Position numbers and translations under genes: made by a program. Source: a virus (lineage: Duplodnaviria; Heunggongvirae; Uroviricota; Caudoviricetes). Taken from it: DNA of 4,011 nt. Below the pieces are notes generated by a model, which was given only the letters and a program-made list of their open reading frames with translations, made no database searches and was not told where the DNA came from. Shown here one piece after another: positions 2,458 to 4,011 of the stretch (position 1 is its first letter; each line of letters opens with the position of its first letter). Location of the stretch: IMG/VR virus record IMGVR_UViG_2713896779_000027. One strand, written 5' to 3'.

Positions 2458-2522
2458 TTAGATTTTCCTAAGAAAACTAGATCGTAGAGAAACCTAAGTC
2501 AAGAAAAATTAGAATTACCTAA
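2458..2522. promoter_or_regulatory. OR-like operator region: three TTAG-N6-CTAA palindromic sites between divergent repressor and cro genes
   Basis: Site 1 at 2458-2471 is TTAGattttcCTAA, site 2 at 2484-2497 is GTAGagaaacCTAA (reverse complement TTAGgtttctCTAC), site 3 at 2509-2522 is TTAGaattacCTAA. Centre-to-centre spacing is 26 and 25 bp. The sites interleave with both promoters' -35/-10 elements, as OR1-3 do in lambda. Confidence 0.6.
2474..2502 (-). promoter_or_regulatory. PR-like sigma70 promoter for the cro-like operon
   Basis: On the minus strand, -35 TTGACT (2502..2497), a 17-nt spacer and -10 TAGTTT (2479..2474). Operator site 2 fills the spacer and site 1 lies just downstream of the -10. 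A candidate divergent PRM-like -10 TAGAAT (2510-2515, plus strand) sits inside site 3 and would give a leaderless or near-leaderless repressor mRNA (ATG at 2524). Confidence 0.5.
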
Positions 2523-2931: not shown

Positions 2932-3006
2932 CCCCCCTTTTTTTCGCAACTCTCTGTAATAAAAAGCACAAACTTTCAAATACTTGTGTTTTTTACATCA
3001 AGAAGC

Positions 3007-3059
3007 TTAGGTTTTTCTACACAAAAAGCTTGACCATAACTCTTAGGTTATTCTAAATT
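3007..3059 (+). promoter_or_regulatory. OL-like operator pair with candidate PL-like promoter downstream of the repressor gene
   Basis: Site at 3007-3020 is TTAGgtttttCTAC; with its 5' C (3006-3020, CTTAGGTTTTTCTAC) it matches the reverse complement of OR site 2 at 14 of 15 positions. Site at 3043-3056 is TTAGgttattCTAA. Between them is TTGACC (3030-3035), with TAAATT (3054-3059) as a weak -10 at 18-nt spacing overlapping the second site. Orientation is inverted relative to the OR sites, as OL is to OR in lambda. Confidence 0.5.
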
Positions 3060-3138
3060 CTACTCATCAAGACACCGCACGGTGTTCTCAGCAAACAGTT
3101 CCGCTACCCGGCGTTAAGGGGAAGCAGAGGATTTCTCA

Positions 3139-3290: not shown

Positions 3291-3340
3291 NNNNNNNNNN
3301 NNNNNNNNNNNNNNNNNNNNNNNNNNNNNNNNNNNNNNNN
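3291..3340. other. run of 50 N: assembly gap or masked sequence
   Basis: Fifty consecutive n characters, directly visible. True length and content are unknown, and the two flanks may not be contiguous. Confidence 0.99.
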
Positions 3341-3432: not shown

Positions 3433-3651
3433 ATGCAGAAACGAGACCCCGTCATCATCGCGCCAGACTATACCGATGATGAACTTTATGAGTGGATGCA
3501 CCAGAAAATTAAGGCGGTGCAGGACCTGAAATGGGCCAATGAAGCCAGGGCTAAGCAGGCTGAAAATCTGTCCGCTCTGGAGCAGGATATCACCAATCTG
3601 GAAAAAGCAGCGGCATTAAGCATTGCCAGAATGATTACATACCTGAGGTAG
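3433..3651 (+). CDS. hypothetical 72-aa protein, probably 3'-truncated by the IS insertion
   Basis: ATG at 3433 with AAGGAG (3422-3427) 5 nt upstream. Translation MQKRDPVIIAPDYTDDELYEWMHQKIKAVQDLKWANEARAKQAENLSALEQDITNLEKAAALSIARMITYLR is helical/coiled-coil-like. The stop (3649-3651) falls within the first bases of the inferred IS left end. No family recognised. Confidence 0.6.
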   Translation: MQKRDPVIIAPDYTDDELYEWMHQKIKAVQDLKWANEARAKQAENLSALEQDITNLEKAAALSIARMITYLR

Positions 3652-4011
3652 CCTGAGTTTAACGGACACTCCTTCCTGAAATAGAATGGCATCAGAAGGA
3701 GCTAATAATGAGCAGAAAAACCCAACGTTACTCTAAAGAGTTCAAAGCCGAAGCTGTCAGAACGGTTCTTGAAAATCAACTTTCGATCAGTGAAGGCGCT
3801 TCCCGATTATCTCTTCCTGAAGGCACTTTAGGACAATGGGTTACCGCCGCCAGAAAAGGGCTCGGTACTCCTGGTTCCCGCACGGTGGCTGAACTGGAAT
3901 CTGAAATTCTGCAACTGCGTAAGGCGTTAAATGAAGCTCGCCTTGAGCGAGATATATTAAAAAAAGCAACAGCGTATTTTGCACAGGAGTCGCTGAAAAA
4001 TACGCGTTAAT
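3644..4011 (+). mobile_element. IS3-family insertion sequence, left end and orfA (element continues beyond the right edge)
   Basis: orfA-type transposase gene with the characteristic HTH N-terminus and leucine-zipper C-terminus, followed by an A7 run (3959-3965) typical of the IS3-family -1 frameshift site. The -1 frame stays open to the window end. Left terminus inferred at TGAGGTAGCC... (3644), with GGACAC at 3664-3669, by analogy with IS3-family inverted repeats that begin with TG. The boundary could instead be at the TGAG at 3654. Confidence 0.7.
3708..4010 (+). CDS. IS3-family transposase OrfA (IS600/IS911-like architecture)
   Basis: 100-aa ORF MSRKTQRYSKEFKAEAVRTVLENQLSISEGASRLSLPEGTLGQWV...LESEILQLRKALNEARLERDILKKATAYFAQESLKNTR. 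Same layout and C-terminal ...ILKKATA...SLN..R motif as IS911 OrfA from memory. AAGGAG (3695-3700) 7 nt upstream of the ATG. Slippery A-run just before the stop. Confidence 0.9.
   Translation: MSRKTQRYSKEFKAEAVRTVLENQLSISEGASRLSLPEGTLGQWVTAARKGLGTPGSRTVAELESEILQLRKALNEARLERDILKKATAYFAQESLKNTR

Follow-up and report, generated by a model that had tools for sequence, protein, structure and literature searches.

The three sites Oc, Om and Oa between dicA and dicC of the cryptic prophage Qin of Escherichia coli K-12 were named by the Bouche group in 1986-1988, as cited in two later papers (PMC3441716, PMC10448788). Here we analyze a 4,011-nucleotide stretch of tailed-phage DNA (Caudoviricetes; IMG/VR record IMGVR_UViG_2713896779_000027), hereafter called the window, in which a 65-bp block at 2458-2522 carries three palindromic sites, O1, O2 and O3, between homologues of the same two genes. 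In our view, the block is likely to represent the right operator of an immunity switch of the P22 type, carried by a DicA/DicC lambdoid prophage and acting in concert with two left-operator sites beyond dicA. The window itself comprises the immunity region of a lambdoid prophage of the PPompW type from Shiga-toxin-producing E. coli (STEC) O121:H19. Chromosomes of O121:H19 and related Shiga-toxin-producing strains match it at 100% identity, phages deposited as "PPompW" match it at 99.7% and have its two central genes annotated as dicA and dicC, and something similar is present in about half of 5,426 complete E. coli genomes.

In K-12, DicA binds Oc in vivo, and a single A-to-C change that turns CTAA into CTCA abolishes this binding; dicC expression rises about 700-fold upon a ten-fold drop in DicA, and the dicC start has been placed by 5′ rapid amplification of cDNA ends at the promoter homologous to that of the window (PMC3441716). 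The dicA gene has no obvious promoter, and its transcription from the cloned region requires DicA; positive autoregulation of dicA was reported (PMC3441716). A preliminary description of the window, made from its letters alone, had allowed for autoregulation, and this K-12 report agrees with it. By differential RNA sequencing, only five E. coli mRNAs have leaders of under 10 nt, and K-12 dicA is one of them (PMC4681348). The strongest DicC signal in chromatin immunoprecipitation sequencing falls at the dic locus, with sites deduced on both sides of dicA, and the DicC motif is a palindrome whose two halves read TT(A/C/T)G and C(G/A/T)AA; dicA expression falls 48- to 84-fold upon DicC induction (PMC11430063). 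K-12 DicA has no cleavage site, and its repression is relieved by the antirepressor Rem (PMC10448788).

The K-12 dicC-dicA gap contains TTAGTCATAACTAA, TTAACAAAAACATA and TTAGCATTAGCTAA at 25-bp steps, which later papers identify as Oc, Om and Oa, with AGTCAA (TTGACT in the opposite strand) overlapping the end of the middle site and the ATG two bases past the third. The window has a block of this same type. Its three sites lie 26 and 25 bp apart (25 and 25 bp in Qin), the first and third being TTAG-N6-CTAA and the middle one degenerate; the dicC promoter overlaps the first two sites, with its -35, TTGACT, overlapping the middle one, and the third site stands beside the dicA ATG. Moreover, the two loci share the dicA and dicC gene families, and both carry two more sites around a TTGACC promoter (dicBp in Qin) downstream of dicA.

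The immC region of phage P22 provides an annotated counterpart. There, OR1, OR2 and OR3 lie within 66 bp beside the c2 start codon, and OR3 ends at the base just ahead of the ATG; the sites of P22 and of the window fall within a common range of 23-26 bp apart, and in both the last site abuts the repressor ATG. The -35 of P22 PR is TTGACT and overlaps the end of OR2, identical in sequence and placement to the leftward -35 of the window, and the -10 of P22 PRM (TAAGAT) lies within OR3 at the same offset as TAGAAT in O3. Annotation puts the 5′ end of the PRM transcript 4 nt ahead of the c2 ATG. The divergent starts are about 53 bp apart in P22, as measured from this annotated 5′ end to a PR start estimated at 7 nt past the annotated -10, and the predicted starts are about 54 bp apart in the window, which is so short a distance that the -35 regions of its two promoters overlap. 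In lambda, PR and PRM start 82 bp apart and do not share their -35 regions. The preliminary description had seen the logic of lambda OR1-3 with PR and PRM in this block: the three-site, OR-like block is indeed there, but P22 is the closer model. The window shares with P22 immC a C2-like N-terminal repressor domain, a third site that abuts the start codon and holds the PRM-type -10, a PR-type -35 that overlaps the second site, and a repressor transcript predicted, from its putative start, to be nearly leaderless. A blastn search in "distant" mode with positions 2220-2740 of the window against phages did not recover P22, and the comparison therefore rests on protein homology and layout.

Operator sites on both sides of dicA

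The two proteins belong to the DicA and DicC families. The repressor scores 241.6 bits against NCBIfam DicA (NF007257; cut-off 101) over residues 1-135 of 135 and is 63% identical to K-12 DicA. Its residues 2-69 match the N-terminal domain of P22 C2 in the PDB (1adr, 2r1j, 3jxb; E = 1e-21), and the match ends at residue 69. Pfam returned only helix-turn-helix (HTH) families for DicA and no Peptidase_S24, so the protein is not of the LexA-like self-cleaving type. Its C-terminal 68 residues found no solved relative in the PDB (best E of 3 or worse), and an AlphaFold2 model from the single sequence, with a mean predicted local distance difference test score of 58, is usable only as "a linker, then two helices". 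DicC scores 167.6 bits against NCBIfam DicC (NF007282; cut-off 130) and 49.7 bits against 30.2 for Pfam P22_Cro (E = 3e-13); it is 83% identical to K-12 DicC, and its gene is divergent from dicA. A DicA/DicC-type switch whose repressor lacks the LexA-like cleavage domain had been proposed in the preliminary description, and these searches support both parts of that proposal.

The gap between dicC and dicA is 76 bp long, has a G+C content of 32%, and holds all three sites. The palindromes were located exactly where the preliminary description had put them (Table 1), with their centers at 2464.5, 2490.5 and 2515.5. It had ascribed the pattern TTAG-N6-CTAA to each; this is exact for O1 and O3, but the first half-site of O2 is GTAG instead of TTAG, which makes O2 an imperfect palindrome. 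O2 has 7 of the 8 core bases and 11 of the 12 positions of the longer, 16-bp motif CTTAGR-N4-YCTAAG, and O1 lies within a perfect 16-bp palindrome frame, CTTAGA-TTTT-CCTAAG, at 2457-2472. The sites interlock with the two promoters. O1 lies directly downstream of the leftward -10, over the predicted start of dicC transcription. O2 occupies the spacer of the leftward promoter, overlaps its -35 with its right end, and has the weak rightward -35 at its center. O3 ends 1 nt short of the dicA ATG and includes the rightward -10 and the predicted dicA transcription start.

With up to one mismatch, TTAG-N6-CTAA has six matches in the whole window against 1.17 expected, a count that was reached in 2 of 200 shuffles. 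Within the 76-nt gap, at least three matches arose in 19 of 200,000 order-1 Markov simulations (P = 9.5e-5), although the model was trained on this very AT-rich intergenic gap, and in none of 200,000 mononucleotide shuffles. The 16-bp motif, searched with up to two mismatches, has exactly five matches in the window against 0.38 expected (0 of 200 shuffles reached five) and exactly five in a complete, 44,350-bp PPompW phage, all of them flanking dicA, but these counts are partly circular because the motif was derived from the same sites. The lack of any other match across 44 kb is still informative despite this circularity. The exact 14-bp core occurs three times in the same phage, against 0.36 expected.

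The leftward promoter has the hexamers and the 17-nt spacer that had been read in the preliminary description. The word "strong", however, overstated it: the promoter matches 8 of 12 consensus positions, under the 9-of-12 threshold of our promoter scan, and was hence not listed by that scan. Transcription of dicC is predicted to start near 2467-2469, and the dicC Shine-Dalgarno sequence is AAGGGG at 2459-2454. For the rightward promoter, whose hexamers we infer from the sequence, TAGAAT ends 8 nt ahead of the dicA ATG, which has no Shine-Dalgarno sequence. By P22 PRM geometry, the dicA transcript would be expected to start near 2521, with a leader of about 3 nt. The earlier reading of this -10 as placed for a leaderless repressor transcript fits the offset of the P22 PRM -10 and the short K-12 dicA leader, with the adjustment that about 3 nt, not strictly zero, is expected.

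A variant of the leftward promoter was found in 7 of 72 close relatives (L050, L054, L057, L058, L060, L067 and L080), which have C for T at the position aligned to 2478. This base changes the leftward -10 from TAGTTT to TGGTTT and removes the key A at -11, and relatives with TGGTTT may be locked in the repressed state.

Two extra operator sites, overlooked in the preliminary description, lie downstream of dicA at 3007-3020 and 3043-3056 and bracket a PL-like promoter, whose transcript is predicted to start near 3066, within CATCA. When reverse-complemented, 3006-3020 agrees with O2 in 14 of 15 positions, the weakened GTAG/CTAC half-site among them, and 3043-3056 becomes almost identical to O3. 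The dicA gene is therefore flanked by left and right operators that are inverted copies of each other, as in lambda and P22. As in a lambdoid OL/PL region, the sites overlap the early promoter beyond the repressor gene and are inverted relative to OR, but they number two, not three; a search upstream of 3007 with up to one mismatch found no third OL site. The P22 PL promoter has the same hexamers, TTGACC and TAAATT, and a CATCAG start region, and the spacing from OL2 to OL1 is 35 bp in P22 versus 36 bp between the left sites of the window. Both left sites are conserved in relatives. A hairpin at 2960-2995 stands where P22 has OL3; it is probably a terminator and could act in either direction.

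The leader that follows the early-left promoter, 3066-3125 (CATCAAGACACCGCACGGTGTTCTCAGCAAACAGTTCCGCTACCCGGCGTTAAGGGG), is conserved from E. coli to Pantoea, Enterobacter and Citrobacter, and the genes behind it vary among loci. RNAalifold gave just a 4-bp hairpin with little covariation for this leader, which is a possible antitermination or RNA-processing element. A put- or nut-like element at this place gained no support: the GTTCCGC..CC core is exact only at the original copy in the window.

Conservation and covariation with the repressor

We collected 250 related loci from viral and genome collections, which represent 38 different DicA proteins and, with protein and upstream region taken together, 88 different combinations, and aligned the gap with MAFFT across 17 DicA lineages (53-100% DicA identity) and P22. 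The three sites align column by column with P22 OR1/OR2/OR3 and Qin Oc/Om/Oa. Across lineages that extend from E. coli to Pantoea, Enterobacter, Citrobacter, Buttiauxella and Yersinia, the gap has these invariant columns: TTAG and TAA of O1, AGTCAA, TTAG..AT...CTAA of O3, and the ATG. O3 as a whole is nearly invariant from E. coli to Yersinia. Among the 72 close relatives, none of the 24 core positions varies, versus 13 of the 52 other intergenic positions (Fisher one-sided P = 0.004). The polymorphisms of Oc in the K-12 group are confined to its central six bases. O2 is kept in the window-type lineage down to 74% DicA identity (Pantoea, Enterobacter). We also compared O3 conservation with DicC identity across lineages; O3 is kept whatever the divergence of DicC or DicA, so the comparison has no discriminating power, and in two loci (L179, L181) the automatic extraction of DicC took the wrong open reading frame.

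The base that flanks the core differs between lineages in a symmetric manner, C-TTAG..CTAA-G in the window type and G-TTAG..CTAA-C in other lineages, as is expected for binding by a two-fold symmetric dimer. This change tracks a difference in HTH helix 2, the third residue of which, residue 22 of the window's DicA within LSQAAL, is Ala in the window type as well as in P22 but Arg in Qin and in the E. ruysiae/Citrobacter types. The outer operator base pair thus changes with the helix 2 residue on both half-sites alike (C..G versus G..C), and the inner fifth base, purine or pyrimidine, follows the recognition helix. The covariation of the flanking base with the HTH represents one or two evolutionary events, and is a lead, not proof. 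The comparison yields testable guesses about the residues and operator positions that set immunity specificity in the DicA family.

A model of the switch and its alternatives

The model combines the layout, homology and conservation computed here with binding and regulation taken from the K-12 papers; the order of occupancy, the cooperativity and the negative autoregulation at O3 are what we infer. Each site would span about 16-18 bp as a pseudo-palindrome, with CTTAGR and YCTAAG on either side of four A/T-rich central bases, and be bound by an HTH dimer; by homology, DicA and the Cro-like DicC would both recognize it. In the prophage state, DicA would sit on O1, the best site, over the dicC transcription start, and probably also on the weaker O2 in the spacer and -35 of the leftward promoter; O1 and O2 together would silence dicC and the replication genes, and DicA at 3007-3056 would silence the early-left promoter. 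Repressor binding would let the weak rightward promoter fire and give a nearly leaderless dicA mRNA, with activation occurring either through contact with RNA polymerase from O2 or through removal of the competing, stronger leftward promoter. At high DicA levels, O3 would become occupied and dicA would be turned down, and DicC would use O3 to the same effect. Because DicA lacks a self-cleavage domain, induction would proceed through a Rem-type antirepressor, and DicC would then silence dicA from the same sites. The binding of DicA to the CTAA-dependent, dicC-proximal site is shown for K-12 only; homology and conservation suggest the same for the window.

Several observations weigh against this model. 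K-12 DicA failed to bind Om or Oa when each was cloned alone in vivo (data not shown in that report; PMC3441716), and Reg-Seq assigned dicCp a single DicA repressor site and saw no dicA start that was active on its plasmid (PMC7567609). In this lineage, DicA shares only 63% identity with its K-12 counterpart, and the operators diverge from those of K-12 at flanking and inner positions. The left half of O2 is unrecognizable in the E. ruysiae, E. albertii, Citrobacter and Buttiauxella lineages and is poor in K-12, and its right half overlaps the -35, so the promoter alone could explain its conservation. Likewise, O3 could owe its conservation to the -10, the start of transcription and the leaderless start codon instead of repressor binding. 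Finally, DicA does not have the domain on which the cooperativity of P22 C2 and lambda CI depends. The results with single K-12 sites, the one site of Reg-Seq, the loss of the O2 left half and the missing C-terminal domain all favor the main rival, simple repression via O1 alone: O1 and 3043-3056 would be the only functional DicA operators, O2 a decayed relic, and O3 a context kept for the dicA -10, start and start codon and used at most by DicC, with no cooperative, graded logic. We judge this rival unlikely. O2 of the window-type lineage retains 7 of the 8 core bases and 11 of the 12 motif positions and is conserved over the range of DicA identity given above, and its likeness to the site at 3006-3020 extends to the same weakened half-site, which resembles tuned affinity, not decay. 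In addition, the K-12 assays used isolated sites and were thus blind to cooperative binding, and the need for DicA in dicA transcription is easier to explain with an occupied site near the rightward promoter.

The palindromes might instead serve mainly another protein, with DicA playing a minor part. According to one study, the host TetR-family regulator YjdC binds in the dic operator region and, in a dicA mutant, represses dicC (PMC9283627). Cnu/H-NS antagonizes DicA at Oc (PMC3441716), and the region is low in G+C. We find this explanation very improbable, because the sites co-occur with dicA and dicC in phages of several genera, their flanking bases change along with the HTH lineage of DicA, a single-base change in the K-12 site abolishes DicA-dependent repression, and the motif matches that of P22 C2, a relative of DicA; H-NS, for its part, needs no precise 14-bp palindromes. 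Chance matches in an AT-rich intergenic region deserve a mention because the core specifies only eight bases, and the count for the whole window was occasionally equaled in shuffles. Such an origin is hardly credible and is effectively refuted by the test against local composition, the invariance of the core across lineages and within the population, and the absence of the motif elsewhere in the 44-kb phage; the positions are, moreover, homologous to the annotated P22 operators and to K-12 Oc, a demonstrated DicA site. The palindromes are almost certainly repressor-binding sites of an ordinary lambdoid (P22-like) prophage switch.

Within the P22-type switch that we prefer, cooperative filling of the three sites in the lambda sense, which the preliminary description had implied, is unproven. 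The hint in its favor is the weakened GTAG/CTAC half-site conserved in both middle sites, and the failure of K-12 DicA to bind Om or Oa alone speaks against it. A weakened middle operator, GTAG in O2 and in 3007-3020, would fit a cooperative C-terminal part of DicA. A broader proposal is that paired protein and DNA changes have divided the DicA family into distinct immunity specificities, and that the short, helical C-terminal part mediates cooperative binding; we hold this as doubtful. If it is true, DicA's C-terminal part would be an independent solution to lambda-type cooperativity, possibly by way of the surface that Rem attacks. The locus in any case frames the question of cooperative binding by a repressor that has no classical C-terminal domain.

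Surrounding genes and comparison with known systems

The features of the window are collected in Table 1.

Table 1. Operators, promoters, genes and other features of the window
Feature	Position	Strand	Details
Lambda-P-like replication gene	219-884	minus	
Initiator with DnaT-like domain	673-1788	minus	
YdaT/CII-like gene	1685-2236	minus	
dicC	2220-2447	minus	Cro-like second repressor, 75 amino acids; Pfam P22_Cro, NCBIfam DicC
Operator O1 (P22 OR1 / Qin Oc equivalent)	2458-2471		TTAGATTTTCCTAA; exact TTAG-N6-CTAA
Predicted leftward early promoter (PR / dicCp equivalent)	2502-2474	minus	-35 TTGACT 2502-2497, 17-nt spacer, -10 TAGTTT 2479-2474
Operator O2 (P22 OR2 / Qin Om equivalent)	2484-2497		GTAGAGAAACCTAA; one core mismatch
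Putative rightward maintenance promoter (PRM / dicAp equivalent)	2487-2515	plus	weak -35 GAGAAA 2487-2492, -10 TAGAAT 2510-2515
Operator O3 (P22 OR3 / Qin Oa equivalent)	2509-2522		TTAGAATTACCTAA; exact TTAG-N6-CTAA
dicA	2524-2931	plus	prophage repressor, 135 amino acids; NCBIfam DicA, P22 C2-like N-terminal domain
Terminator-like hairpin after dicA	2960-2995	plus	AAAAAGCACAA...TTGTGTTTTTT; A-tract, hairpin, T-tract; folding z = -3.2
OL2-like operator	3007-3020		TTAGGTTTTTCTAC; upstream of early-left -35
Predicted early-left promoter (PL / dicBp-like)	3030-3059	plus	TTGACC, 18 nt, TAAATT; 9/12 consensus, listed by promoter scan
OL1-like operator	3043-3056		TTAGGTTATTCTAA; in promoter spacer, overlapping -10
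Gene broken by run of N, between dicA and ydfC-like gene		plus	
ydfC-like gene	3433-3651	plus	
First open reading frame of IS3-family element	3708-4010	plus	Pfam HTH_Tnp_1; NCBIfam IS3 transposase below cut-off

A run of 50 N at 3291-3340, within the first gene of the early-left operon, marks an assembly gap, so the window derives from a scaffolded draft. Where the window has the IS3-family open reading frame, another gene is present in the reference PPompW phage, so the early-left operon may be interrupted in the window. The replication-initiator gene contains iteron-like direct repeats at 1231-1427, with TTTGGGTGTCTTTG at 1231, 1261 and 1283, and a 24-nt unit sharing GTTTTTGGGT at 1249, 1315 and 1404; these repeats are probably the phage replication origin, as in the lambda O gene. 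The sequence GTGATTTTCATTGTTCAA at 2226-2243 spans the start codon of the YdaT/CII-like gene and differs at three positions from the published YdaT box, TTGATT-N6-AATCAA, which occupies the same place in the Rac prophage (PMC11879457). A search of the window for this box gave the one candidate, in the expected place, and the match count was no better than chance. Rfam, searched with the whole window at E up to 1, gave no match.

PPompW-type prophages are common in STEC O121:H19, and the analysis adds five operator sites, three promoters and likely transcript starts to the annotation of their immunity region. Head, tail and replication genes are annotated in the PPompW reference relatives. The reference records also carry the type III effector genes espO, nleG and espM, and in some strains the prophage and an Stx2a phage lie in tandem. 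PPompW phages have an annotated rem gene, at 12478-12735 in L255 (LC567822) and at 666-923 in L002.

The design itself is already known, from Qin in the 1980s and from P22 earlier; what is new is the set of operator sequences of this lineage and, probably, its specificity. Qin differs from the window in the core-flanking base (G in Qin, C in the window), in the inner fifth base (pyrimidine in Qin, purine in the window) and in the middle site, which has three core mismatches in Qin and one in the window. Cross-immunity between the two is doubtful, because the flanking, inner and central operator bases differ. Qin is also a cryptic remnant, whereas the window belongs to a PPompW-type prophage.

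P22 differs in its half-site, AYTWAAG as against nCTTAGR in the window, and in its left operator, which has three OL sites where the window has two and a terminator-like hairpin replacing the third. Moreover, C2 carries an S24 self-cleavage and oligomerization domain and is induced by way of RecA, whereas DicA has a short, unrelated C-terminal part. In this respect, the closer parallels are the Gifsy GfoR/GfhR repressors and the Qin DicA-Rem pair, in which a short repressor without a cleavage site is under the control of an antirepressor; the rem gene of PPompW agrees with this arrangement. Lambda shares with the window the divergent repressor and cro genes, three operators common to two repressors, a leaderless repressor mRNA and positive autoregulation, but its repressor, operator sequence and cooperativity domain are not homologous in detail.

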